In this document: piece after piece, positions 6,250 to 19,989 of the stretch
How positions within the stretch are numbered: the stretch's first letter is position 1
Layout: each line of letters starts with the position of its first letter
Source: Deltaproteobacteria bacterium
Lineage (GTDB): Bacteria > Myxococcota_C > UBA6777
NCBI GenBank assembly: GCA_002731275.1
Contig: PCBK01000053.1
Location: 100,275 to 120,263, forward strand
Length of the DNA stretch: 19,989 bases
Reading direction: 5' to 3'
Notes under the pieces: generated by a model
Seen by the model: the letters and a program-made list of their open reading frames with translations, nothing else
Told to the model about the DNA's origin: nothing
Database searches by the model: none
Position numbers and translations under genes: made by a program

Positions 6250-6912
6250 ATGAACGCAACCAAAACATCTCTCACCACTCACTGTTTGTCGCTCCTGTGT
6301 GGCTACGTCCTGCTTGTCAGTGTACCATGTGTCGCATTGGCAGATATTGCACCTCCTGTCGGATACATCGAGAAATGTACTGTCAAGAAGCAACAAAAAG
6401 CAGATGAAGTGTGTCGTTGGTGTCGCACCTATTTTCGCAAACCCAAGGCCTGTCAAAAGCGTTTCAAAACGACGGTGTTCAAGAAACGATGTCGCAAAGG
6501 TGGTGCGTCTGTTTGGAGTGAGTTGTGGTGTGCTCCCAAAAAAGCCATCAAACAAAAGGCCGCAACAAAAGAGCAGAAGTCATCGGCAGGAAAGGTCGAT
6601 CATTCCAAGCCTGTCGAGGTTTTGCGTACTGTGTTTCGTGCCGCACGAAGCAACGATACATCGCTTTTGGCCGGATTGTGCGATCCCAAAGGGGAGAATG
6701 ACGGCGACACACGTCGACTTTGTAAAGCGACGAGTAAAAGCCCACGCTGGAAGATGTTTAAGAAGTTCTTTGAGAAAGGGAGCACCAAAGGGACTGTCAA
6801 ATTCGTGAAGGGTAAGGCCTACATTCCATTTATGTTTGGACCCGATGGGAAAAAAGGCGAGACAATGGTGCTGATCAAACGCGATGGTAAGTGGTATTTG
6901 TATAGTTTCTGA
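6250..6912 (+). CDS. Secreted Lys/Cys-rich hypothetical protein
   Basis: AAGGAG 5 nt before the ATG. N-terminal signal-peptide-like segment (LLCGYVLLVSVPCVALA). The mature part is very basic with paired cysteines (CRWCRTYFRKPKACQKRFK...CRKGG...WC). Confidence 0.6.
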   Translation: MNATKTSLTTHCLSLLCGYVLLVSVPCVALADIAPPVGYIEKCTVKKQQKADEVCRWCRTYFRKPKACQKRFKTTVFKKRCRKGGASVWSELWCAPKKAIKQKAATKEQKSSAGKVDHSKPVEVLRTVFRAARSNDTSLLAGLCDPKGENDGDTRRLCKATSKSPRWKMFKKFFEKGSTKGTVKFVKGKAYIPFMFGPDGKKGETMVLIKRDGKWYLYSF

Positions 6913-6933
6913 GTCTTGGCGTTTCAGCCTGTC

Positions 6934-7760
6934 CTATTTGAGTTTTCTTGCGAGATACCAACTTCCTTTGCTTTTTGCGCAAAACCCCGACTTGATCGAT
7001 GTGCTTCCTCTCCACTTGCCACATCTTTTTGACTTGATAAAACGCAGAGGAGGGCGCGCCCAACAGATCGCCTTTCCGTTTTTGACACCGAGGAAGTGAC
7101 GTCTCCCTGGACATGTCGGTGTCGATGGTTTGGGGACGCCTGCGTTCTTGATTTGTCGTGCGAGATACCAGCTTCCTTGATGCTTTGTACAAAAGCCCGC
7201 TTTGATCGAAGTGCTCCCTCTCCAGCGTCCACAATGTGAAGCCGCGATAAAACGCAGCGGCGGTCGCGCCCAACAGATCGCTTTGCCATACTTGACGCCG
7301 AGCAGTGGGCGTCTGCCTGGACACTTCACGCCACCTGTATTGCGAGGCGTTGGCGCGCCTTTTCCTTTCAGCTTTCTGACGAGATACCATCCTCTCATAT
7401 CCTTTGTACAGTGTCCCGAGAGGATGCTCAACGAACCTCTCCATCGTCCACAATGCTTTGTCTGGATGAAGGTCAATGGTGCTTTGGCCAGACACAAAGG
7501 CTTGCCATATTTCTTGCCCATTTGATGACGTCTTCCTGGACAACTCACTCCTGATGAATTGGGGGCTCCTTTTCCTCTGAGTTTGCGGGCGAGATACCAA
7601 CCTCCCATACTTTTCACACAGTAGCCGGCCTTGATCATTCTGTTTCCACCCCAGCTTCTACACTTTCTCGCGAGGATCGTGGGTTTGGGCTTGAGCTGCC
7701 AACAGATCGCGCGTCCATTTTTCAAGCCGAGACGTGTCTGTCTGGGAGGGCACACTGTCG
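6934..7760. repeat. Tandem ~210-bp DNA repeat x4, coding, in the 3' end of the M19-like gene
   Basis: The landmark 'gcgagatacca(a/g/t)c' recurs at 6951, 7160, 7379 and 7589 (periods 209/219/210), with long near-identical stretches between copies. It gives many spurious overlapping ORFs in other frames. Confidence 0.85.
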
Positions 7761-9588
7761 ACGGGAGAAGGCTCCTTGCATAGAGCCCTTTGACTCTCAA
7801 GAGTGTCCCTCTCGGCTTTTTGGCACCAGGGCGTGGGCTGCGATTGTTTGCGTGAATACGTTCCCACATCTGCAAGAAGTTCTCCGCAGAGTGGCGGAGG
7901 TTGTTGATGTCAGCGCCCACACGTTTTAAGTCGAGAAAGAACTCACCGAGCACACCAATGTGTGAGAAGCCGATATTGTCGAAGGTTCGTCCTGTAGCAG
8001 TGTTACGTTGTTTGTGTTTTTGGTAATCCATCTCGCCCAAAAGAGCATTACATGTGAAGGATTTTTCGTCTTTGGCCTGTTGGATTTTTTTGAGCAGGAT
8101 GGGGAGCCCGATCGTAGCAAAGAGTCCAGCCTTGATGCCCAGACTTGCAACACCAAGCGCCGCTGGCGCGAGGAGGAATTTGACGAGAGGCGCGCCGATG
8201 ATGATGCCACCAGTGATCAACATCGGTTTGACTCTTTTGATCACTGCGTGAGCGGGACCATGTTTCCCGATGCACTTGGCGAGATAACTTCCGCCACAGG
8301 CGTATTGTCCAAAACGTGGGACGGTCATCGGGATGAAGCCGTTCAAATCGCTACCAATCCCGACATTTGCGCCCAGACCAAAGTGTGTGTAGTTGTACAT
8401 TTGTGCAAAGGAACGTGTTGATCCGTGACATGTGTTGGCGACCGCTTTGGATGTGTTACGTGGTCTGTAGCCGACCTGCTCCTTGTTTCCTGGACGAAGA
8501 CCGATCATCCCTCCTGTGCGCATGATCAGATCGATCTCTGTGCGACTAATCGCGTTGTGGTGCGCCATAATCTTGCTCTTGGAGGTTGGATCTTCACCGC
8601 TGCGATTCAGTTTGGCGACAGTCGTCTCTTTGATCCATGCGTGGGATGCAAACATCGGATAGTAGCGGTTGCGTCGGACGATATTGTAGGTGTCCCGGAT
8701 GCCTCTCATCGACAGGTGCGCGACATCGATCAGCAAGCGATGCTTCATCATCTCTCTGATCAAGTCTTTTCCCTGCCTTGTCAGCCCGAAGATATTGCGT
8801 CCATGACGATCCGTTCGAAACCCTCGACGGATTCCTTTGATGGCTTTTTTGGCGAAGGCGTCGCCGTATTTTTTCCGGCTCTTCAATGCTTCAAAGATCT
8901 TGAAGGGCATGGCGTGTAATTGTGCGCCACCAAAGCGGTTGTCCATCTCATGGACCGGCTGGATCGAACGCACGCCTGCCTGGACGAGTTTCTTGAGCTG
9001 TGTGCGCCAGGGGCCGTATGTGGGATCCATGAGGTTGGAGACTTCGAGGTGGAGGATGGCCGCGAGTTTTCCCTGACGGATCGCGAGGCGAGCTTCTTGT
9101 GGAGAGCGTACGATCCGGAACCAGGATCGGTGTTTGTGTGCAAAGCGTTTGACCGCGTTGATTTGGTGCCACACAGCGCGCATGTCAGCGCAGCGTTTTG
9201 TGAGCTTTTTATCTTTGTTCCACATCCTGCTCTTGAGTTTGCGGCGCAAAGAGGGTTTGAGGAATCTTCTCGCGACGTCGAGGATGTGACAAAGAGGTTC
9301 GTAGTTGACGATGGAGACCAGCATGATCTTCAAGCCTTCACGGTGGGCTTTTTTGAGCCATGTTGTGTGCATCGCCTGGTGTTGGATATTGCTCCAAATG
9401 GGTGTTCGTCTGGGGCGGTCGTCGTTTCTGCCTTCAAACCACTGTCCATTGTGTGCGAGATGGGCAAAGTGGTGCGCGTGAAGGTCGATATACCCGACGA
9501 CTTTACTTCTCCCTCGTCTGCGTGCGTCTACATCTTGTGGAGGGATGCAGATGAGCGTGAGCATGAATAGTAGGGTCCATTTGTGCAT
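6934..9588 (-). CDS. Secreted peptidase M19-like (membrane/renal dipeptidase family) hydrolase fused to 4 C-terminal ~70-aa Cys/Trp-rich basic repeats
   Basis: Signal peptide MHKWTLLFMLTLICIPP. 'IDLHAHHF' aligns with M19 (V/I)DGHxD. 'HNAISRTEIDLIMRTGGMIGLRPG' aligns with the M19 'RN..D..L.....GGV.G..F' block. 'GIGSDLNGF' aligns with the M19 GxGSDFDG signature. AGGAGA lies 6 nt before the ATG. The C-terminal ~270 aa are four repeats, each CP(G/P)RR..LG.K.GKAICWARPPLRFI...CG.WRGSTSIK.GFC.K..GSWYLARKLKGKGAP. Confidence 0.65.
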   Translation of the reverse strand: MHKWTLLFMLTLICIPPQDVDARRRGRSKVVGYIDLHAHHFAHLAHNGQWFEGRNDDRPRRTPIWSNIQHQAMHTTWLKKAHREGLKIMLVSIVNYEPLCHILDVARRFLKPSLRRKLKSRMWNKDKKLTKRCADMRAVWHQINAVKRFAHKHRSWFRIVRSPQEARLAIRQGKLAAILHLEVSNLMDPTYGPWRTQLKKLVQAGVRSIQPVHEMDNRFGGAQLHAMPFKIFEALKSRKKYGDAFAKKAIKGIRRGFRTDRHGRNIFGLTRQGKDLIREMMKHRLLIDVAHLSMRGIRDTYNIVRRNRYYPMFASHAWIKETTVAKLNRSGEDPTSKSKIMAHHNAISRTEIDLIMRTGGMIGLRPGNKEQVGYRPRNTSKAVANTCHGSTRSFAQMYNYTHFGLGANVGIGSDLNGFIPMTVPRFGQYACGGSYLAKCIGKHGPAHAVIKRVKPMLITGGIIIGAPLVKFLLAPAALGVASLGIKAGLFATIGLPILLKKIQQAKDEKSFTCNALLGEMDYQKHKQRNTATGRTFDNIGFSHIGVLGEFFLDLKRVGADINNLRHSAENFLQMWERIHANNRSPRPGAKKPRGTLLRVKGLYARSLLPSTVCPPRQTRLGLKNGRAICWQLKPKPTILARKCRSWGGNRMIKAGYCVKSMGGWYLARKLRGKGAPNSSGVSCPGRRHQMGKKYGKPLCLAKAPLTFIQTKHCGRWRGSLSILSGHCTKDMRGWYLVRKLKGKGAPTPRNTGGVKCPGRRPLLGVKYGKAICWARPPLRFIAASHCGRWRGSTSIKAGFCTKHQGSWYLARQIKNAGVPKPSTPTCPGRRHFLGVKNGKAICWARPPLRFIKSKRCGKWRGSTSIKSGFCAKSKGSWYLARKLK

Positions 9589-9699
9589 ATTGCGTCTCCT
9601 GTGTGGGTCTTTTTCGGATGATAGGTGCTCTGAGATGAGCTTCGTTCTTAGTGTCGACGCAAAACGTAAAAATGCACTACACGAGCCATTTTTGCCTTT

Positions 9700-10992
9700 T
9701 CATGCTTGTCGTGGGGGTTTGTTGATGGGCCAGAGCAGCGCGCCGAGGAAGAGTACAATAGACACGAGGAAGCTCCCGTAAAGATACTTATCCAACGCAG
9801 CTTGCGTGGGCTTTTTGAGTGTGATCTCCAAACGTCCGTCTTCTTTTTGGTACCAAACAGGGGTGCGTTTCGTTGGGGATGAATGTGGTGGGAGACAGCA
9901 ATATCGATGTCGTTGACCATCACTGTCTCGAAAGGTGATGGCGAGCTTCCCGTTTTTTATGGGGTGTGGAGTGGCCATTGATTCCGACCATATCGCACCA
10001 GTCAAAAGTGAGACGAGGAGGATCGCTCCGACAGAGATGAGCCAAAGGAGCGATGTGACGAGGATGGCAGGTCTGACCCAACCGCTGGCGATATGGTTCG
10101 CGGGGAGACGTATCTGACTTTCCAATACAATCGTCTCATCAAGCTCAGGCAGAGAGTCCAAAGGGAGGAGCTGGAGAGCGTTCCATGTGTCCATCGATGG
10201 TTTGGGGATGGATTGGGATGGGTCCCAGCCGAAAAATGAGACGTATGCAGCGTACAGCTCGGGGAAGAGAAAATTCAACTCGTGGGGACGTTCGAAAAAG
10301 TTCTCTACACTGACCGCCCAAAACTCCTGTCGTTCGGTTTTGCCGTAGGGATCCTTAAAAAGCTCCAAGCGCTCTAGAATGGCATACTCATCAGGTGTGG
10401 GTTCCTTTGTGTTCCAGACCGCGTGATATTGTGCGACAAGTCGTTCGATGTGAGGGCAACCTGGATCTCCCCAGGCGAGGCCATCGCGAAAATCGACGAT
10501 GTGTGCCAGCTCATGAATGATGAGATCGTGCCCATCATTGTGTCGTCTCAGGTCTTTGTCGGCATCTTTCCAGCACAACCAGACAGCTCCGTCGTAAGTT
10601 GCATACCCACTCACAACGATACCTTCGAATGTTGGACGGTTGTTGGTCAAGATGACCTTGTGGAGTCCTTCGAGGTGGTGTGAGTGGATGAGTGAGATAC
10701 GTGCTGCCGCTGCCGCGACCATGATGTACATCTCGTTCTTGAGTTTGAGCCCTTTGCCTGCAAATTGAACCCGCTTGAGCAGTCGCACCATTTCGTTGTG
10801 TAGGGTGTGTCTGAGATCTTTGGGGAGGTGTCTGTAAAAGAGTATTTTGCGGAGAATGACATTCCATTCCCGTGGGATCGTACCTTCTTGGAGCTTCTCT
10901 GCGCCGGGGTACAAAGAAAACACCAGCCGTTTTTTCTTCTTGGATCTTTTGGACATCGTTTTGTCGCCTTCTGTATTGTGTAGAGGTGACAT
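9700..10992 (-). CDS. Peptidase M90 (MtfA-like zinc metallopeptidase) with a C-terminal double-TM anchor
   Basis: 'IIHELAHIVD' HExxH zinc site, followed by 'EFWAVSVENFFERPHELNFLFPELYAAYVSFFGWDP'. This matches the MtfA/M90 hallmark E(V/F)FAV.SE.FFE.P..L....P.LY..L..FY..DP. Two hydrophobic helices near the C-terminus. Only 24 bp downstream of the sirtuin gene on the same strand. Confidence 0.75.
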   Translation of the reverse strand: MSPLHNTEGDKTMSKRSKKKKRLVFSLYPGAEKLQEGTIPREWNVILRKILFYRHLPKDLRHTLHNEMVRLLKRVQFAGKGLKLKNEMYIMVAAAAARISLIHSHHLEGLHKVILTNNRPTFEGIVVSGYATYDGAVWLCWKDADKDLRRHNDGHDLIIHELAHIVDFRDGLAWGDPGCPHIERLVAQYHAVWNTKEPTPDEYAILERLELFKDPYGKTERQEFWAVSVENFFERPHELNFLFPELYAAYVSFFGWDPSQSIPKPSMDTWNALQLLPLDSLPELDETIVLESQIRLPANHIASGWVRPAILVTSLLWLISVGAILLVSLLTGAIWSESMATPHPIKNGKLAITFRDSDGQRHRYCCLPPHSSPTKRTPVWYQKEDGRLEITLKKPTQAALDKYLYGSFLVSIVLFLGALLWPINKPPRQA

Positions 10993-11016
10993 ACTTCCAT
11001 TGGATACCAGTCCAAG

Positions 11017-11862
11017 TCAACAGTGTCTCTCGTCGTCGACCAATAGACGAAGGGCGCGGCTTGAGGTATCTGGGATGTAAAGGTCGACGAAAGGGGTGAG
11101 GGCGGTGGGTGTGGGGTTGATTTCGATCAATGTGGCTCCGGCCTCTCTCGCGATATGGGGAAGCTCGGCGACAGGATAGACTGTCGCTGAGGTGCCGAGG
11201 ACGAGCATGACTTTGTTGTGCTTCACCAGACAGATGGCTTCTTGCCATGTCGAGGTGTCGAGTGGGTCGCCAAAGAACACCATGTCAGGTCTACGAGCAC
11301 CACCACAAGATGGGCATGTGAAGAGATCTTGCTTGAGTTTTTTGAAGAGCTTGATCCTGCCGAGTGGTTGCCCTTCAAGTTCATTGAGGAAGGCGCGGAG
11401 AGCGTCTTTGCTGAGGGTGTCTTGGCGTTTACATGTTTTGCACACAGAGCGAAAGAAGTTGCCGTGTACTTCGACGACATGTTGACTCCCTGCGTCCTGA
11501 TGAAGCTGATCGACGTTTTGTGTGATGATGCCAGAGAGCAGGCCCTGTTGTTCGAGTGTTGCGAGTAATGTATGTGTGTCATTGGGGGTGGCTTGCACAA
11601 AGGTCTTGATCGTGTCTCGCAAGAAGCTCTGGAACCATTTGGGAAAGCAAGCGAATGTGAAGATGAGACCTGGAGTATGACCGAACAGTGAGGGAGGATA
11701 CTGTCTCCAGAGTCCATCTGTGCCCCGAAAGGTCGGGATTCCACTGTCCACAGAGACACCGGCGCCAGTGAGTACGCAGACAGGCCCACGTTCATGGATG
11801 ATTCTGAAGGCTTCTTTATGTTCGGTGAGAAGGTCTTTTGGTGGGATGTTGTGTGAGGACAA
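11017..11862 (-). CDS. cobB: NAD-dependent protein deacylase, Sir2/CobB family sirtuin
   Basis: Rossmann/NAD motif 'LTGAGVSVDSGIPTFRG'. Catalytic 'ITQNVDQLH...VVEVHG'. Zn ribbon 'CKTCKRQ...CPSCGG'. C-terminal 'VLGTSATVYP'. Start re-placed at an in-frame TTG, giving MSSHNIPPKD..., with AAGGAG 7 nt upstream. The track's longer ORF to 11952 also begins at a TTG but without a ribosome-binding site, and the extra 30 aa have no Met. Confidence 0.8.
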   Translation of the reverse strand: MSSHNIPPKDLLTEHKEAFRIIHERGPVCVLTGAGVSVDSGIPTFRGTDGLWRQYPPSLFGHTPGLIFTFACFPKWFQSFLRDTIKTFVQATPNDTHTLLATLEQQGLLSGIITQNVDQLHQDAGSQHVVEVHGNFFRSVCKTCKRQDTLSKDALRAFLNELEGQPLGRIKLFKKLKQDLFTCPSCGGARRPDMVFFGDPLDTSTWQEAICLVKHNKVMLVLGTSATVYPVAELPHIAREAGATLIEINPTPTALTPFVDLYIPDTSSRALRLLVDDERHC

Positions 11863-12030
11863 AGCTATGCTCCTTTGTATGTGTCGGTGTGTCTTTCTAC
11901 GATCTAGGGTGAGTCCGTGTGTTGGATCGTCAAGGAAAAAGTGCAAGGACAAAGAAGGGGGAGCGTTCCTTGCGAATGTGTAGGTGACTCCTTAACATGT
12001 GTATATTATTGTACTCATATGGAGGAGATT

Positions 12031-12996: not shown

Positions 12997-13456
12997 TCAT
13001 CTCTTGGTAAGGCCGTTGGATGGAAAAAGCGTACGTAAGAGGGTCGGTGATGGAGTCTCAGGCAAGGCATGAGAAGGCGCAATCGCAGCGCTATTGCAAC
13101 GACGAATAACGATGCTTGGGGTTTCAGCAACAACCTCTACGGACGTTTCTTTTTCTGTATCCTTTTTTCCATTCGATGGCCTAAGTCTTTTCTGCCACCC
13201 CTATCCATCCAAATCCCCACCACATAGCAAATAAGACAGTCTGGAACCTACCCTGCAAAAAGTGTCCACGTATGAGGACACAGGACTGTGCAAGTCCATC
13301 TACACTTCCCTTTTCTTTCTTTGTATGGTTTTGTTTTACAAAAACATTTGTTTGTTGGATGAGTGGCGTATGGATTGCAGTAGACTGTTTTGTCCGACAC
13401 TCCAATTGTGCAGATTGCCGGTCTTTTGTCTTGGTCGTACCAAAAAAGGGTTTGTG

Positions 13457-14458
13457 ATGTTCAATCGATCTCGTGATATCTTGATGCTCTCAATGGCGTT
13501 GTTTTTTCTCGTCTCGACCTGTTGTGTGGTGTACGCGACACACACAGTCCTCTCCGAAGATGGGAAGTGGGTTGGGGGTGTTGTACGTCACGTGGTCTCG
13601 GATAAGGGGAAGGGGCATCCTGTTGTCGAGCGGCTCGTCGATCGTGTGACGGACAAGATCTTGTCGCGTGTGCTCGCCAAGGATGAGCGACTTCATGTGC
13701 TCCCGCTCGTCGAGAAGATCCTCGATCGGATCTTGCATCGTCTCGTGCAAAAACTCTTCTCAAACGAAGGGGATGTGTTGTTCAAGGGGATCGTCAAGTC
13801 TCCTGAGGTTGAGCACTTCATGAAGAAGGTTGTGGATCATGTCCTGATGAAGCGACAAACGCAGCTCGTAGCGGTTGTCAAAAAGGTCGCGCCTGTCGAT
13901 CTTGCGCGTGTGAGTCGGGGGGTTGTGAGCCATGTCCTGCGTCGAGAGCGCAAGCCACTGATTGCTGTTGTCTCTCGGTTGGTTGGGGAGCTGATGAAGC
14001 AGTCATCAGGTCGAGGTGGCGGGAAGGCGTTGGCGACAGCGGTGATCGATCGGGTGTTTGCAAAGCACCAAAAAAGCCTGACCGAGATCTTGCAGAAGGT
14101 CGCGCCGCTTAACCTCAAAACACTCACACAAAAACTCGTCCAACAGATCCTCAATCGCAACCGCAAAGATATCGCTGACATCGCCCAAAGTATCATTGTG
14201 AAGCTGACCAAGAAGATCCGCCAGGGGGATGTCGAGAAGCTGACCAAGAAGCTCCTCACACAAGTGATTCGTAGACACAAACAAGACATTGTTGATATTG
14301 TCAGGCGGTCCAACAAAACCAATCTTGAGAAGCTACTTCCTCGTGTCACCAAGCGCGTACTCAGGGAGAACAAGAAGCAGATCGTTTACATCGTGCGTGA
14401 GGTGTTAAGGGTCGATTTCGCGAAGCTCCTCAAGCAAACATTTTCCAAAAAGAAATGA
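13457..14458 (+). CDS. Secreted basic protein built of ~33-aa amphipathic helical tandem repeats
   Basis: Start chosen at MFNRSRDILMLSMALFFLVSTCCVVYA (signal peptide) rather than the track's 13262. The body consists of about 10 degenerate repeats such as (V/I)..(K/R)LVQQILNRNRKDI.DI.Q.II and KKLLTQVIRRHKQDIVDIVRR. An 18-bp near-identical DNA repeat 'aagctgaccaagaag' recurs. Confidence 0.65.
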   Translation: MFNRSRDILMLSMALFFLVSTCCVVYATHTVLSEDGKWVGGVVRHVVSDKGKGHPVVERLVDRVTDKILSRVLAKDERLHVLPLVEKILDRILHRLVQKLFSNEGDVLFKGIVKSPEVEHFMKKVVDHVLMKRQTQLVAVVKKVAPVDLARVSRGVVSHVLRRERKPLIAVVSRLVGELMKQSSGRGGGKALATAVIDRVFAKHQKSLTEILQKVAPLNLKTLTQKLVQQILNRNRKDIADIAQSIIVKLTKKIRQGDVEKLTKKLLTQVIRRHKQDIVDIVRRSNKTNLEKLLPRVTKRVLRENKKQIVYIVREVLRVDFAKLLKQTFSKKK

Positions 14459-15738
14459 ACAGCCCTTGTGGGTTTGCTTTCATCGATTCGCCCTGCGCAA
14501 AGCGGGTCTCCTCTGACAAAAAGGAATGCTCTATGTGGTCGATACTTTCATCCTCCCTCCATCTCCTCGTCATCCCTGTCTCTGCGGGCGTGATTGGGTA
14601 TGTGACCAACGTCCTCGCGATCAAGATGATGTTTTATCCCATCGAGTTTACGGGGAAGAAGCCGTACTTTGGTTGGCAGGGGATTATCCCCTCCAAAGCG
14701 ACGAAGATCGCCGGGGATGCCGTTGATATCGTGCTCGCACGTCTGATCAGCGTCACCGAACTTTACACGCGGCTTGATCCTGAAGAGGTCTCTAAAGAGC
14801 TCACACCTGTGCTCAACGAGCTGACCGAGGAGATCGTCGAGAAGGTCGTCTCTGAGGCATATCCAAAGGTGTGGGAGACGATGCCCAAGTCTCTCAAAAA
14901 GAAGACGTTCAACAAGATTCAAAAAGAGATCCCCCATATCATCGAACAAATCGTCGAGGATGTAGAGCTACATATCGAAGAGATCTGTGATGTAAAAGCC
15001 ATCGTGATCGATGCATTCGTGAAGGACAAGAAGCTGCTCAACGAGTTGTTCTTACGTTGTGGTTCAGAGGAGTTTAAGTTTATCGGTCAGTCCGGACTTT
15101 ACTTTGGGTTTTTGTTTGGCGTCCCACAGATGATCGTGTGGTACTTTGTGCAGCCATGGTGGTTGTTACCTGCGGCGGGATTGCTCGTTGGGTATGCCAC
15201 CAACTGGGTCGCGTTAAAGATGGTCTTTGAACCTGTGAACCCTGTGAAGATCGGTCCTTGGGAGTGGCAAGGGCTGTTTTTGAGACGTCAGTCTGAGGTC
15301 TCGGCTGAGTATGCGGAGGTCTTCGCCAAGGAGATCCTCAACGCCAAGAATATTATCAACGCGATTATTCGTGGCCCCGCATCAGACCGACTGTTTATGA
15401 TCATCCAACGTCATCTGAAAGAGGCGATTGATGACACTTCGGGGATGAGCAAACATTTTGTGCAGTTTGTGATTGGGACAGAGCGTTACATCGAGATGAA
15501 GAACAATATCTGCGATGGTTTGATGGATTCACTGCCTAATGAGCTCGGACGAATCCACACTTACGCGGACGAGGCGCTCGATCTCAAAAGAGAGCTGGAG
15601 GATGGCTTAAACTCCTTGAGCCCTGAAGAGTTTGAGGGGATTTTGCACCCTGTTTTCCAGGAGGATGAATGGATTCTGATCGTCGTGGGGGCGTTACTTG
15701 GGATGGCTGCGGGTTTTGCACAACTCTTGATGGTGTAA
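14455..15738 (+). CDS. DUF445 family (YjiN/YheB-like) membrane protein
   Basis: 'GYVTNVLAIKMMFYP...GWQGIIP' at the N-terminus and the second 'GYATNWVALKMVFEP' repeat are typical of DUF445. The ATG overlaps the upstream stop (ATGA), which suggests translational coupling. An alternative start at 14533 (MWSIL) is possible. Confidence 0.7.
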   Translation: MNSPCGFAFIDSPCAKRVSSDKKECSMWSILSSSLHLLVIPVSAGVIGYVTNVLAIKMMFYPIEFTGKKPYFGWQGIIPSKATKIAGDAVDIVLARLISVTELYTRLDPEEVSKELTPVLNELTEEIVEKVVSEAYPKVWETMPKSLKKKTFNKIQKEIPHIIEQIVEDVELHIEEICDVKAIVIDAFVKDKKLLNELFLRCGSEEFKFIGQSGLYFGFLFGVPQMIVWYFVQPWWLLPAAGLLVGYATNWVALKMVFEPVNPVKIGPWEWQGLFLRRQSEVSAEYAEVFAKEILNAKNIINAIIRGPASDRLFMIIQRHLKEAIDDTSGMSKHFVQFVIGTERYIEMKNNICDGLMDSLPNELGRIHTYADEALDLKRELEDGLNSLSPEEFEGILHPVFQEDEWILIVVGALLGMAAGFAQLLMV

Positions 15739-16020
15739 ACCCACACCAAAAGCGGTGTATTCCATGTTCAGTTACAAGCATAAGGGGCGAAAGACCTGGA
15801 CTGTTCTTGCGATGGTGACACATCATCATCACTTTTTGAAGCTACGAATGACGTATGACCACAGCATTCATCATCGCGTAGGGCGGATTTTTCTCGCAAA
15901 AGTCTTCAGGGATATGGGGCGGCTCATCAAAAACTCCACAAAACCATCACGCTAAACAATCGAGACCATCGAAGAAAATAATGGCGAGAGTTTTGTTAAG
16001 TCATGTGTTTGTTGGTTACT

Positions 16021-16511
16021 CTACGTGAATTCGGAAGGTGATATCTGCGTAGTTATTTCGTCTCTTTCCAAATCCTTCAACAACGACGGGTCCACGACAA
16101 AGGTCTTGCCTCTTTTGATAAGAGCAAATTCCTTGGTTGCGCTTGCGTGGGTGAGAAGATCTCGCAAAGATGCATCTCGTATCTTCTTTGAGTGTGTTGT
16201 TGCTGTGATTATGTTCAGTGACACGGTGTCACCCCAAAAATTCAGGTGTGGTGCTTTCTGGATGGGGATGAGCGCCTGTATGTGGGGTTTTGGGTTGAGG
16301 CAGCGACATTTTTTTGCACCGCAAGGTGTGTCAGGTATTGTTCGATCTCTGGGGTATCCATGGTCGTCGGGTGTCTTTTGTTGTGGAACAGGATGAATCT
16401 CTTGATCCAGCCGACATAGGTCTTTTCTGTTGCACGGGAGTACTGCTTCAGGCGGATGGTAGCTCGGACGCGTTCCAACAACTTTCTTTTGGGAGGTTCG
16501 GGGGAGTTCAT
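16021..16511 (-). pseudogene. intI: Integron-integrase-type tyrosine recombinase (IntI-like), frameshifted and 3'-truncated
   Basis: The intact N-terminal 89 codons (16511..16242) give 'LERVRATIRLKQYSRATEKTYVGWIKRFILFHNKRHPTTMDTPEIEQYLTHLAVQKNVAASTQN'. This matches the IntI SAM-like N-domain pattern (R.I..L.YS.RTEQAYV.WV..FI.FH..RHP.....EVE.FL..LA..R.VS.STH.QAL). The frame breaks right after ASTQN. A second frame (about 16230..16021) reads '...IRDASLRDLL...FALIKRGKTFVVDPSLLKDLE', resembling the box I/'GKG.K.R.VPL' patch region. The HxxR and Tyr-containing C-terminal third is absent in all frames downstream. Confidence 0.65.
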
Positions 16512-16599
16512 GTTTTTTTCTTTTCTGTTGTTTGGTTCTTGAGTGAGTTTTTTGTCTTGTGTATGGGCTTAAGCAACAGATGTGCCAGTTGGGGAGCGG

Positions 16600-16716
16600 T
16601 GGATATCCTGAATTTTTTCCCGATATCACACGATATCGATGGATATCGCGAATTAGTTCAAGATATCGCTTGACAGGTGTGCGATATCTGGACATACTCT
16701 GTCGATATCTGGACAA
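16600..16716. promoter_or_regulatory. Phased array of seven GATATC hexamers (two as the 13-bp direct repeat CGATATCTGGACA) upstream of intI, candidate attI/recombinase or regulator binding region. It contains a sigma70-like TTGACA-17-CATACT facing the cassettes
   Basis: GATATC starts at 16602, 16622, 16632, 16642, 16662, 16683 and 16704, with spacings 20, 10, 10, 20, 21 and 21 bp, about one or two helical turns. 'cgatatctggaca' occurs at 16682-94 and 16703-15. TTGACA at 16670-75, 17-nt spacer, CATACT at 16693-98 on the + strand. Confidence 0.5.
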
Positions 16717-16807
16717 CCATCGTGGATGTCACCTAAAAAGCGGACAAACATTGAATGAGTTCAATAGAATAACAAGTTAATTGTTTTATTGAAATTCAGG
16801 GTTTTAT

Positions 16808-16840
16808 TACTTGCATCAAAAAAAAAACGACATCAAAGTC
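16808..16840. terminator. Weak bidirectional hairpin (A10-ACGAC-atcaaa-GTCGT-ATTTTCTT) in the AT-rich leader
   Basis: 5-bp stem flanked by an A-run upstream and a T-run downstream. Could insulate the cassettes from intI-region transcription. The stem is short. Confidence 0.2.
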
Positions 16841-16977
16841 GTATTTTCTTCCATCGGAAAGTTGAAAAGCATGTAAATCTACCTTATATTTTTTTGCTTT
16901 ATAGGTAAAAATATAAAGGTCTACCCAAGGGAAAATTAGCGCAGGCTTACCATATCATCTTTGCTCCTAATAATATC

Positions 16978-17006
16978 TTGACAACAAAACTATATTCGGA
17001 TATTGT
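16978..17006 (+). promoter_or_regulatory. sigma70-like promoter for the ATPase gene
   Basis: TTGACA (16978-83), 17-nt spacer, TATTGT (17001-06). AAGGAGA sits at 17021-27, 6 nt before the ATG at 17034. Confidence 0.35.
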
Positions 17007-17033
17007 TGTGAGTGAAAAAAAAGGAGAACTTTT

Positions 17034-18317
17034 ATGTTCAATCCAGAAAACGGTTTTACTTCAGATGTAATAAAAAGTCCTGACAGGTTTGTAGGAAGAA
17101 CGAATCTTGTGATGAGTTGTCTTCGTGTTCTAAATTCAGAACATAGCCTGATCGTTATTTATGGCAAAAGAGGAGTAGGTAAATCTTCTCTACTTCGCCA
17201 AATCCAGCAAATTGCTACGGGAGATTTCACTCTCCCGAAAAAAATGAGTTTACAATACCTGATATCAGAAAAACAGAGGAAGTATTTAACGGTTTACTAT
17301 CAATGCGATTCATTAATTGATGGTTGTGATGAACTGCTACTAAGGTTAGTAAATGATCAAGATGGAGAAGATGGCCTTCTTCGACTCGTTCCGGATGATG
17401 GTAAAGAATTAGTAGAGTTTTCGAGAGCAAAAAGCGTAAATGCAGGTGCTGATCTAAAAATAGTAAAGTGGGGGACTCAGGGAGTTGAAACATCAAGGTA
17501 TGCAAGGACTGTACCTGGTGACGTTGTCCAAACATTTAGAAATTTTTTGAATTCTATTATCACACACCAGTTAAATAAGTATGGGAAAGACGGGATTCTT
17601 ATACTTATCGACGAGTTTGATGTGATTAAAAACAAACATGGAATAGGGTCATTGATAAAGTCCTTAACTTCAGACAAAATAAAATTTGCTATATGTGGTA
17701 TTGCAGATGATGTAAGTTCTCTTGTCGAGGATCATCACTCTGTCGAAAGGTTACTTGAAGAAGGTTCAATGCCTGTTCTCCAAATGCCACATAGTGAATG
17801 TTTGCAAATTTTAAACAGAGCAGAGGAACTTTTTGACAACGAAATTAAATTTGTAGGAGAGGCAAAGGAGAAAATATCTCAACTGAGTTCAGGTTACCCT
17901 TATCTTGTTCAACTGTTTGGTAAAGCGTGCATTCATGAATTAAATAAATATGGAAAAAGTGAGGTCGATGAGTTCGTATTGAATGCCGTACTTAATGCTA
18001 TAAAAAAAGGTGAAGCATTTCCCAGTCTTGAAACTAAATATCAAAGAGCCATTGGGAATTCAGAACAACGACAACTTTTGCTGCATCTATTGTCTGAAGA
18101 AGAAGATAATAGGGAGCAACAAGATTTGGAAATGGGATTGGTCTATTTGAAAAACGTTCGAAAAGAGGCTGTAGGTTTAGAAATAGAGAATATGGACCAA
18201 ATCATCCCAAGATTGGTAGATAAAAAATATGGACCAGTTTTAAGTAAAATTCGAAAAGGTGTATACGAATTCGTTGATCCTGTATTCAGAATATATGTGA
18301 ACCTCAGGGAATTGTAA
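17034..18317 (+). CDS. P-loop NTPase of the AAA+/ATPase_2 (PF01637-like, 'archaeal-type' orphan ATPase) class
   Basis: 'FVGRTNLVMSCLRVLNSEHSLIVIYGKRGVGKSSLL' matches the ATPase_2 N-terminal signature (F.gR..el..L.......vI.G.RR.GKTsLl), including Walker A. Walker B 'ILILIDEFD'. A sensor-like 'SGYPYLVQLFG' corresponds to the family's GG.PyyLq motif. About 38% GC with a strong ribosome-binding site. Confidence 0.75.
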   Translation: MFNPENGFTSDVIKSPDRFVGRTNLVMSCLRVLNSEHSLIVIYGKRGVGKSSLLRQIQQIATGDFTLPKKMSLQYLISEKQRKYLTVYYQCDSLIDGCDELLLRLVNDQDGEDGLLRLVPDDGKELVEFSRAKSVNAGADLKIVKWGTQGVETSRYARTVPGDVVQTFRNFLNSIITHQLNKYGKDGILILIDEFDVIKNKHGIGSLIKSLTSDKIKFAICGIADDVSSLVEDHHSVERLLEEGSMPVLQMPHSECLQILNRAEELFDNEIKFVGEAKEKISQLSSGYPYLVQLFGKACIHELNKYGKSEVDEFVLNAVLNAIKKGEAFPSLETKYQRAIGNSEQRQLLLHLLSEEEDNREQQDLEMGLVYLKNVRKEAVGLEIENMDQIIPRLVDKKYGPVLSKIRKGVYEFVDPVFRIYVNLREL

Positions 18318-18470
18318 GAATCAAGGAGCAACTTAGCGATGAACAAGTCGTTGGAGCGAACATGCCAGGGCACATTCGGTAAAGTCGTTTTCCTACACGA
18401 TATGAAGAGATCCTCAACTACACAAAGAGCCCTGTCATATGCGCTCAACTCAGGCGTTATGTTCTGAAGG
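18318..18470. repeat. attC-like cassette-boundary element, copy A (complete). The first ~75 bp are shared with copy B and the whole is a ~127-bp imperfect nested palindrome
   Basis: 18334-18393 is about 83% identical to 19750-19809, and both contain GTTGGAGCGAACATG. The outer inverted repeat is TGAACAAGTCGTTGGAGCG (18340-58) against CGCTCAACTCAGGCGTTATGTTCTG (18442-66). The inner inverted repeat is GAACATGCCAGGGC (18358-71) against GCCCTGTCATATGC (18429-42), 11/14 complementary. It lies immediately 3' of the ATPase stop. Confidence 0.45.
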
Positions 18471-18760
18471 AGAAAGAGTAAACGCCTGACATAGGCGCAA
18501 TATCAGCAGGAATTAGCTCAATAAAGGTTGCAATAGAAATTGCAAAAGACCTTAAAAATGCAACATCATCTCTTAAAGACGCTGAGGTTAAGCTGAAAAT
18601 AGCTGAGTTATTGGAAGCTATGTCTGAAGTAAAGTCGGCAAACACCAACTCCCTTAACATATTTAATGATAAATTTGTCACAGAGAGAGACTCTCTTAGA
18701 GAAAATAATCTACAAAGATATGGTTTAATGGTTTTTATCTAGAGCGTGTCGAAATTTGGC

Positions 18761-18789
18761 TTGAACTGTAATGCTTACCGTGATATAGG
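18761..18789 (+). promoter_or_regulatory. sigma70-like promoter with extended -10 for the EcsC-family gene
   Basis: TTGAAC (18761-66), 17-nt spacer, then TGaTATAGG (TG at 18781-82, -10 at 18784-89). AGGAGG at 18805-10, ATG at 18820. Confidence 0.4.
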
Positions 18790-18819
18790 ATGGAAAAATA
18801 ATATAGGAGGACCTGTGAA

Positions 18820-19638
18820 ATGAGTACTGCACTTTCACAATATGAGAGAACGGCATTGCAAGAGATCAATGATTGGAAAAGTCCTGAAGAGCAAACTTGG
18901 TTTGGTGCAATTGCCAATGCTGTGTCTTATCCTTTCGATTTGGCAGGAGATGCAGTCATGTCAATTCCAGGAGCACAGACTGCTGTAGAAAAAACTGTGG
19001 GAGGACTCATCTCTCTGCTTAATGATGCTGCACAGTGGAGTATTCCTGCAAACTCAGCTGTCGAATATTACAAAGGAAAAAAGCGCTCTGTAAACAATCG
19101 CAAAGATATTTTCAAACTTGATTTGGAAGAAATAGATGAAGCTATATCTTATACCGGAGCAAAGTACAGGGCTCTTGCTGCAGCGGAGGGGGCAGGAGCT
19201 GGGGCAGTAGGAGTTATTGGTATCCCCGTTGATATTGTAGCACTGGTTGCGATGAATCTGAGAGCGATAGGTGAATATGGAACCTACTGTGGATTTGATA
19301 TGTCAAAAGAACATGAGCGCCTCTTTGCAATGAGAATACTTGGAGTAAGTTCGAGCCCAACTGATGCTGCAAAACAGGTTGCCTTAGCTCAACTTACAAA
19401 AATAGGGAAAGAAGTTGCAAAAAAACAAACTTGGAAGCAATTGGAAAGGCATGGCTTTGTTCGATTAATTCAAGAGATTGCAAAATCACTAGGAATTCGA
19501 CTGACAAAAGCAAAGCTTGCTCAAATCTTACCAGGTGTTGGAGCCGTAATTGGAGGTGGATTCAACGCGTATTATACAGGAAAAACATGTACAACTGCAT
19601 ACTATATGTACAGGGAAAGATTTCTTTTGGAAAAGTAG
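18820..19638 (+). CDS. EcsC-family protein (PF12787-like)
   Basis: N-terminal 'LSQYERTALQEINDWKSPE' matches the EcsC 'E..AL.EI..W' pattern. There is a central Gly/Ala-rich 'AAAEGAGAGAVGVIGIPVDIVALVA' segment. The C-terminal 'LPGVGAVIGGGFNAYYTGKTCTTAYYMYRERF' matches the family's conserved 'IP.IGA.IGGG.N...T.......A...FR' tail. Identification is from memory of the family, not a search. Confidence 0.6.
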   Translation: MSTALSQYERTALQEINDWKSPEEQTWFGAIANAVSYPFDLAGDAVMSIPGAQTAVEKTVGGLISLLNDAAQWSIPANSAVEYYKGKKRSVNNRKDIFKLDLEEIDEAISYTGAKYRALAAAEGAGAGAVGVIGIPVDIVALVAMNLRAIGEYGTYCGFDMSKEHERLFAMRILGVSSSPTDAAKQVALAQLTKIGKEVAKKQTWKQLERHGFVRLIQEIAKSLGIRLTKAKLAQILPGVGAVIGGGFNAYYTGKTCTTAYYMYRERFLLEK

Positions 19639-19732
19639 AAAGAGAGTGTTCTTGATTACAAGTGAGAGATTTTGGATGTCACTACTCCTCTTTCACCATG
19701 AAAAGAATGAAAAGATAAATCGATTTGTAAGC

Positions 19733-19809
19733 AATACAATAAAGCAATTAAGCGGTGAACAAATCGTTGGAGCGAACATGTCAGGGCATAGTCGACAAAC
19801 CCATTTTCC
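19733..19809. repeat. attC-like cassette-boundary element, copy B, 3'-truncated by IS insertion
   Basis: Aligns with the 5' ~75 bp of copy A through '...cattttcc', then abruptly becomes GTAACCGGGCGAGC, the IS66-type terminal repeat. It is the only reason the 87-aa ORF 19550..19813 stays open. Confidence 0.45.
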
Positions 19810-19989
19810 GTAACCGGGCGAGCTAGAACGTCTTGAAAAGGAAATGAAAAGAAAAGAAGCAAGCTCCTTCAAAATATCAAACCGAAGGAGAAAAAATATG
19901 GCTTACAATCGTTCCGAACACTGGCGACCAATCATCGAGCAATTCGAAGTCTCTGGCCTTACGCAAAGTGACTTCGCCGAGCAACACGA
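19810..19989 (+). mobile_element. IS66-family insertion sequence, left end (IRL plus start of tnpA). It continues beyond the window
   Basis: GTAACCGGGCGAGC at 19810 resembles the IS66-family 'GTAAGCG...' terminal inverted repeat. 88 bp later, AAGGAG with a 7-nt spacer precedes an ATG whose product 'MAYNRSEHWRPIIEQFEVSGLTQSDFAEQH...' fits the IS66 TnpA accessory-protein N-terminus (W..II..F..SGL.Q..F....GI). Confidence 0.5.
19898..19989 (+). CDS. tnpA: IS66-family TnpA (orfA) N-terminal 30 codons, partial
   Basis: See the mobile-element entry above. Helix-turn-helix-like 'SGLTQSDFAEQH' segment. The ORF runs off the window end. Confidence 0.45.
   Translation, partial: MAYNRSEHWRPIIEQFEVSGLTQSDFAEQH

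Follow-up and report, generated by a model that had tools for sequence, protein, structure and literature searches.

A probable degenerate chromosomal integron from an uncultured marine bacterium

The locus described here is an integron-like array in the right-hand part of a 19,989-nt stretch of DNA (the window) from an uncultured marine bacterium (assembly GCA_002731275.1, contig PCBK01000053.1, forward-strand positions 100,275 to 120,263). Coordinates count from the first letter of the window unless another contig is named. From left to right, the locus comprises a leftward remnant of an integron integrase gene (intI), an intergenic region with an array of GATATC motifs, two rightward gene cassettes, each followed by a copy of an attC-like recombination site, and the left end of a probable IS66-family insertion sequence (IS). 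An earlier interpretation of the letters and open reading frames (ORFs), termed the sequence-only reading, had recognized the ground plan of an integron. This arrangement was confirmed: the IntI-type stub faces away from the array, the cassettes lie on the other strand, and an attC site follows cassette 1. The region recurs almost unchanged in dozens of contigs from marine metagenomes and in the metagenome-assembled genome (MAG) GCA_002720785.1, labelled 'Deltaproteobacteria bacterium'. Dozens of independent contigs back the structure of the locus.

The integrase remnant

The intI remnant (16287-16511, minus strand) comprises roughly the first 75 codons of a tyrosine recombinase gene of the integron type, corresponding to the N-terminal SAM-like domain only. 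It is contained in a mechanically called ORF (16242-16511, minus strand), which reads leftward and extends past the homology to 16242 in non-homologous sequence. The predicted protein starts with MNSPEPPKRKLLERVRATIRLKQYSRATEKTYVGWIKRFILFHNKRHP and continues to LTHLAVQKNVAASTQN; its IntI-type N-terminus ends at ASTQN. The integron integrase profile TIGR02249, which is 315 positions long, matches the stub along positions 1-66 with 74.6 bits, while the next best family, archaeal XerA, reaches 25 bits. Pfam assigns the stub to PF13495 (Phage_int_SAM_4, E 4e-24). The closest solved structure is VchIntIA, the integron integrase of Vibrio cholerae (2A3V, E 1.8e-13), compared with E 0.2 for XerA. The leftward recombinase gene is hence of the IntI type, as the sequence-only reading had it, and the comparison with the Xer type, which that reading had proposed as a check, came out on the side of IntI. 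The nearest full-length relatives in GTDB genomes share 62-66% identity over the stub residues. They score 408-502 bits on TIGR02249, which has a whole-protein cutoff of 265 bits, and carry attC arrays upstream. The stub itself falls under this cutoff and lacks the catalytic C-terminal domain (RHRY), and with it the part of the gene in which the IntI-specific additional patch would lie.

IntI1 and ten environmental full-length IntI proteins (n = 11) served as queries in tblastn searches. The sole match in the window was 16287-16511, and no IntI residues beyond 77 were traced in 15000-16700. A continuation of the IntI homology after the stub is absent in all three frames, without any open frame. 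The gene had been described as dead through a frameshift after ASTQN. Dead it is, with no catalytic domain left, but it has been truncated and not merely frameshifted, because nothing of the residues past about 77 survives. It is a truncated pseudogene, from which about 245 residues, including the catalytic domain, are missing. A tail without IntI similarity (16182-16286) stands in place of the rest of the gene. Position 16182 is also the left edge of a module common to the window and a contig from another sample (L003), where the alignment breaks at about 16182.

A listed ORF at 16021-16716 (minus strand) was rejected as a gene and is a mechanical artefact. Retention of the stub as a small functional protein was likewise dismissed; frameshifts in the L003 copy and 6 nonsynonymous versus 4 synonymous codon differences favor neutral decay. 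Without exception, the best 120 matches to the stub in the database are short IntI N-terminal fragments of 72-132 aa with heterogeneous tails; many come from Cyanobacteria, and some lie on Mb-scale contigs. Public data contain a great many short IntI stubs, with random ends or with deletions inside, and decayed remnants of this kind seem to occur very widely. In two inspected stubs from other loci, a transposase gene abuts the stub.

The attC sites and the IS66-like element

An intact attC site, attC1, is located behind cassette 1 (18338-18462, plus strand, 125 nt). It was detected by R2, an own covariance model derived from 12 class 1 attC sites from plasmids, in which only the R and L pairings are specified. 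The match covers the full length of the model with 24.9 bits (E 8.2e-5) and was obtained on the plus strand only; the runner-up in the window scored 9.8 bits. Its boundaries coincide with those read by eye beforehand, and its orientation is that expected from the cassette direction. The left side of the site consists of R'' GATGAAC (18338-18344), a 5-nt spacer AAGTC and L'' GTT[G]GAGCG (GTTGGAGCG). An 83-nt variable region follows and extends the stem. The right side comprises L' CGCTCAAC, a 6-nt spacer TCAGGC and R' GTTATGT (18456-18462). The spacers AAGTC or AAATC and TCAGGC also occur, letter for letter, in known attC sites from a HAD-type cassette, cmlA1, aadA16 and aac(6')-29a. The bulged G in L'' (G on the top, C on the bottom strand) occupies the canonical position, as in the attC sites of blaVIM-2, cmlA1 and estX. 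Folding of 18338-18466 yielded -17.0 kcal/mol for the bottom strand (z -1.87) versus -13.7 kcal/mol for the top strand (z -0.39). The palindrome had been called attC-like, with a structure-based search and a fold of both strands suggested as tests. The canonical layout, the R2 score on the correct strand and the better fold of the bottom strand agree with that identification, the call being made by the own model and not by attC_4 of IntegronFinder.

The performance of R2 was assessed on several data sets. Held-out attC sites were found at 41 bits (dfrA12), 29.7 bits (dfrA5) and about 38 bits (gcuF). In 98 kb of plasmid DNA, no match beyond the known attC sites exceeded 13 bits. A search of 816 kb around IntI-like genes in 80 genomes gave 103 matches at E <= 0.01, with scores of 23.6-54 bits; 95 of them, as counted from the hit table, have the canonical geometry, upstream of intI and on the strand opposite to it. 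At two other loci with decayed intI, attC sites were detected with 25.8-27.9 bits. About 190 kb of control DNA contained no match comparable to that in the window. An earlier mini-model (R1), built from trimmed attC sites with 48 positions, missed the long attC sites of arr-3 and dfrA12, and its failure in the window is uninformative. A search of 15700-19989 against Rfam gave no matches, as expected, attC not being an Rfam family.

Part of the attC1 3' end (L'-TCAGGC-GTT) is repeated in inverted orientation at 18474-18499 (minus strand), 12 nt past R'. Two R'-like boxes thus face each other. The two arms, 18440-18458 and 18481-18499, form the inverted repeat I7 and are 79% complementary. The copy may be a scar of aberrant recombination.

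A second site, attC2, is present as a left half only (19754-19809, plus strand). It consists of R'' GGTGAAC, the spacer AAATC and L'' GTTGGAGCG and is homologous to attC1. The homology runs 22 nt into the variable region and stops at 19809. Both sites belong to a 67-nt direct repeat (D1; 18327-18393 and 19743-19809, 82% identical), one copy of which lies behind each rightward ORF. The ORFs 5' of the two copies are mutually unrelated. Two occurrences of the conserved 22-mer GTTGGAGCGAACATGNCAGGGC were counted in the window, where 0.00 were expected. A copy of the palindrome had been claimed for the end of each cassette ORF. This holds for the first, a 125-nt imperfect palindrome; of the second, the IS has left the left half only. 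About 90 related loci were searched by BLAST and regular expressions for this attC type and for GATATC clusters, and neither was found. The sole likeness there was the 14-mer AACAAATCGTTGGA, shared with the attC sites of an Acidobacteriota integron.

The IS66-like element interrupts attC2 at 19809/19810 and continues to the end of the window (19810-19989, plus strand), in accordance with the IS66 cap reported earlier. It starts with GTAACCGGGCG, the IS end beginning GTAACC, and its orf1 starts at 19899. In longer contigs, orf1 matches HTH_Tnp_1 with 20.6 bits and the start of an overlapping orf2 corresponds to positions 2-24 of TnpB_IS66 with 23.1 bits, both below the cutoff in these cut sequences. 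An orf1 followed by an overlapping orf2 would represent the IS66 gene order. A full IS66 element carries, in addition, an orf3 for the transposase, and its ends begin with GTAA; neither orf3 nor the right end appears in the available contigs. The predicted 8-bp target duplication is CATTTTCC or lies nearby. All contigs that carry the stub, the attC1 ORF or the EcsC gene of cassette 2 break off in IS66. In the MAG contig L001 (11080-12530), unlike in all metagenome contigs, an IS66 orf1 corrupted by deletions is followed by a gene for a YhcG/DUF1016 PDDEXK nuclease; no attC was found in L001 after the corrupted IS. On contig L008, a sequence close to the left end of the IS (GTAACCGGACGAGCGGGTACGTCTTTGAAAAA) is located in direct orientation inside IS66 orf2 (11958-11995). 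It could stem from nested IS copies or from an assembly join between IS copies.

Intergenic region and cassette genes

Between intI and the cassettes, seven GATATC motifs and a single GATGTC form an array with steps of 10, 20 or 21 bp (16602-16730). The window contains 15 GATATC motifs, compared with 3.0 expected, and seven of these fall within 108 bp (16602-16709). The array is included in the repeat families D3, D8 and I1. It covers a Pc-like promoter candidate as well as the sequence 5' of the intI stub. No GATATC cluster was found in about 90 related integron loci. The motifs have no GTT core and are unlike the GTTA-type direct repeats of attI1 or integrase-binding boxes. Of the attI-like repeat array in the sequence-only reading, the cluster is real and strongly non-random; its likeness to attI is unproven. 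The known regulatory sites of integrons are LexA and CRP boxes. A GATATC-type regulatory layer has, to our knowledge, not been described for integrons. It is conceivable, although rather doubtful, that the phased array is the binding platform of a factor, a repressor or a methylation-sensitive switch, which controls the expression of the integrase and the cassettes.

A candidate attI core (16750-16782, plus strand), more convincing than the array, offers two possible crossover points, G16759 and G16776. The first, G16759|TTCAAT, is situated within the palindrome ATTGAATGAGTTCAAT. In each attC copy, the R'' box holds the complement of GTTCA, and GTTCAA recurs at 16656. The second, AATAACAAG16776|TTAATT (AATAACAAG|TTAATT; AATAACAAGTTAATT), resembles the simple site of class 1 attI1, CCTAAAACAAAG|TTAAAC, taken from L021 (TAAAACAAAG|TTAAAC). 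R2 gave a weak match of 8.4 bits for it, limited to the R box.

A promoter candidate at 16670-16698 (plus strand) consists of TTGACA, 17 nt and CATACT, with 10 of 12 consensus positions. By position only, it is a plausible cassette promoter (Pc) directed into the cassettes. Promoter-like matches in 16100-19989 are not enriched, with 11 found versus 8.7 +/- 2.5 expected from shuffles. Since they are no commoner than in shuffles, neither Pc nor promoters of the cassettes themselves are demonstrated, and the earlier claim that the cassettes carry their own promoters is not sustained.

The guanine-plus-cytosine (G+C) fraction decreases from about 0.49-0.50 to 0.33-0.38 across 16400 to 16800 and stays at 0.33-0.44 from about 16750 to the window end. 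The drop coincides with the candidate attI core; the fall at the cassette start, noticed earlier, is real.

Cassette 1 extends from about 16760 or 16777 to 18456. Its gene (17034-18317, plus strand) encodes a 427-aa P-loop ATPase, AAA/STAND-like, with matches to the Pfam families AAA_16, ATPase_2 and nSTAND1. NCBIfam indicates a weak match to the Sll1717-family ATPase, and PADLOC gives similarity to defence ATPases at the P-loop level only. Cassette 2 begins at 18457. It contains an open frame of 86 codons (18482-18742, plus strand), read from the sequence, which is preceded by a GGAG motif and lacks ATG, GTG and TTG codons upstream of codon 44 (18611). The only match is a weak one to a Snf7-like coiled coil. 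The frame is possibly a decayed small gene or one with an unusual start. The second gene of cassette 2 (18820-19638, plus strand) encodes a 272-aa protein of the EcsC family (PF12787, E 3.4e-36). Among the candidate defence families of PADLOC, it matches PDC-S29 (E 4e-11) and PDC-S30 (E 1.5e-9). A role of the cassette genes in defence may be proposed from these similarities.

Interpretation and comparison with known integrons

The locus is very probably a degenerate remnant of a chromosomal integron, comparable to the clusters of attC sites lacking integron integrases (CALIN). Originally, a leftward IntI would have acted on attC sites folded from single strands, joining them to an attI site immediately upstream of intI, and promoterless cassettes would have been stacked rightward behind Pc. 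The integrase gene has since lost everything after about codon 75. At least two cassettes are left, one with the AAA/STAND-like ATPase and one with the small open frame and the EcsC-family protein. On the right, insertion of the IS66-family element split attC2 in its variable loop. Without an integrase in cis, the array would no longer be shuffled and would move only through an IntI acting in trans or by homologous recombination. It is presumed to be inactive at present.

Several observations weigh against this interpretation. The score of attC1 lies near the bottom of the range for true sites, its second extrahelical position is an A x G mismatch without a clean bulge, and its R'' and R' boxes (GATGAAC and GTTATGT) pair over 3-5 bases only. 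It is the single complete attC in the window. Exact patterns of the attC left arm were found neither in GTDB representative genomes nor in a metagenome contig collection, the latter being a weak negative as the collection lacks even a known Joint Genome Institute (JGI) contig. A protein search with the 42-aa ORF spanning attC1, for further copies called as genes, returned only the ORF itself. No attC was found near relatives of the ATPase (54-57% identity, seven metagenome loci), so these loci provide no separate proof of the mobility of cassette 1. The exact attI crossover point can be given as candidates only, and the GATATC array is unaccounted for by an integron model. Finally, the presence of the module in a second left-hand context, on L003, indicates that it may not be strictly sedentary.

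Were no integron involved, the stub would derive from an integrase of the phage or Xer type, and transcription terminators or the duplicated 3' end of a gene would underlie the palindromes. Such a reading could draw on the fact that only two copies of the palindrome are known, one of them partial, that no relatives of the element were found, and that shuffled sequences fold as well as the top strand (z -0.39 for 18338-18466; -0.04 for 18330-18475). It is largely refuted and very improbable, given a stub that is specifically IntI-like and an R2 match that covers the whole model on the correct strand and in which the canonical spacers of 5 nt and 6 nt are flanked by AAC/GTT, to which nothing in the control DNA is comparable. 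No T-run is present behind the stem, and a duplicated gene end is excluded because the ORFs upstream of the two copies are unrelated. A history in which the module of intI stub, attI, cassettes and IS66 was carried by a mobile unit or a recombining segment, and reached its site already decayed, is unlikely but deserves more weight. Contig L003 carries 16182-19989 (at 7368-11170) beside unrelated left-hand genes, so the already truncated platform is present in two backgrounds. The 3.47 kb of 16520-19989 are 100% identical between window and L003. All differences are confined to 16182-16519, where about 9% of the positions differ over about 340 bp and indels break the stub frame. This pattern suggests that the cassette side may have been exchanged recently between backgrounds, and an IS66 element is found on the right flank. 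Two strains exchanging DNA by homologous recombination would account for the identity pattern just as well, however, and no IS end or inverted repeat was seen at the left boundary near 16182. The left flank consists of ordinary chromosomal genes. L003 is moreover a single assembly, in which a chimeric join across the shared segment is an alternative.

The remnant of a chromosomal integron, as the favored interpretation, can be compared with several known systems. Lineage-specific attC types are well known, and the defence-rich cassettes of chromosomal integrons are an established topic. The ATPase and EcsC cassettes would fit the view of chromosomal integron cassettes as defence-gene stores. 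The attC clusters without a functional integron integrase were abundant in a genome survey, with IS within cassettes in 12%, a neighbouring IS in 38% and an intI pseudogene nearby in 15 of 279 cases (Cury et al., 2016; PMC4889954). An uncharacterised chromosomal integron with a lineage-specific attC had been regarded as new; with CALIN this frequent and such attC types on record, the novelty is not upheld. The IntegronFinder definition of CALIN asks for two or more attC sites in a span of 4 kb in the absence of an integrase. Half of that rule applies to the locus, which has one intact attC and, 1.4 kb away, a homologous left half cut by the IS. Nor is it a complete integron with functional intI, attI and Pc, as intI is truncated and attI and Pc are candidates only. 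With CALIN it shares attC cassettes without a working intI, an IS in or next to the array, the small size and cassettes of unknown function. Unlike the pseudogenes sought in the published screen, which used a C-terminal profile, the intI pseudogene here is limited to the N-terminal domain, and the screen would miss it; with one intact attC, the default software rule of at least two attC sites might discard the locus.

The superintegron of Vibrio cholerae with its VCR-type attC sites is similar in its chromosomal setting, in attC sites of about 125 nt, 82% similar into the variable region (two copies here), in cassettes that are AT-rich relative to the host backbone, and in a cassette protein family among candidate anti-phage systems. 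In contrast to the superintegron, the integrase is dead, only two cassettes are visible, and the contigs end in an IS. Sedentary chromosomal integrons are recognized by more than 19 attC sites or by occurrence in every genome of a species, and by homogeneous attC sites; for such a comparison the locus offers two copies, 82% identical. Class 1 attC sites have the same order R''-5 nt-L'' ... L'-6 nt-R', the same spacers (AAGTC, AAATC and TCAGGC) and the bulged L'' base. They differ in R'' (RYYYAAC, here GRTGAAC), in R' (GTTRRRY, here GTTATGT) and in a stronger R''/R' pairing. The class 1 attI1 site TAAAACAAAG|TTAAAC resembles the attI candidate AATAACAAG|TTAATT, whereas the upstream region of the locus lacks GTTA-type direct repeats and has the GATATC array instead.

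The locus would be a well-documented example of integron death, with a 75-codon integrase stub, an IS inside the attC loop and a cassette side still exchanged between backgrounds. Standard pipelines, applying a C-terminal intI-pseudogene profile and at least two attC sites, would probably miss it, and surveys may undercount decayed integrons in uncultured marine lineages. Genome surveys have shown such remnants to be common. Existing knowledge of the integron mechanism is unchanged by the locus.

The left-hand surroundings of the module differ between the two contigs. In the window, the left flank to about 16180 has a G+C content of about 50% and contains genes for M19 and M90 peptidases, SIR2, an epimerase and DUF445. 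Adjoining DUF445, a 398-aa ORF (13262-14458) encodes repeated helical segments rich in lysine and valine (…VLxRxxKxIxxIV…), for which a Pfam search gave no match. On L003, the neighbours are leucine-rich repeat (LRR) and WD40 proteins and a 41-bp tandem repeat. The repeat GAGATAAGTCACTTCCAAAAAAAGCCAATGTTCGCTTTTTG (6680-7100) is present in 2.5 copies in an array delimited by Tandem Repeats Finder (TRF; 6823-6926), with degenerate copies around it. Each 41-bp unit contains a small hairpin, and ATGTTCGCT is common to the unit and the complement of an attC arm, possibly by chance.

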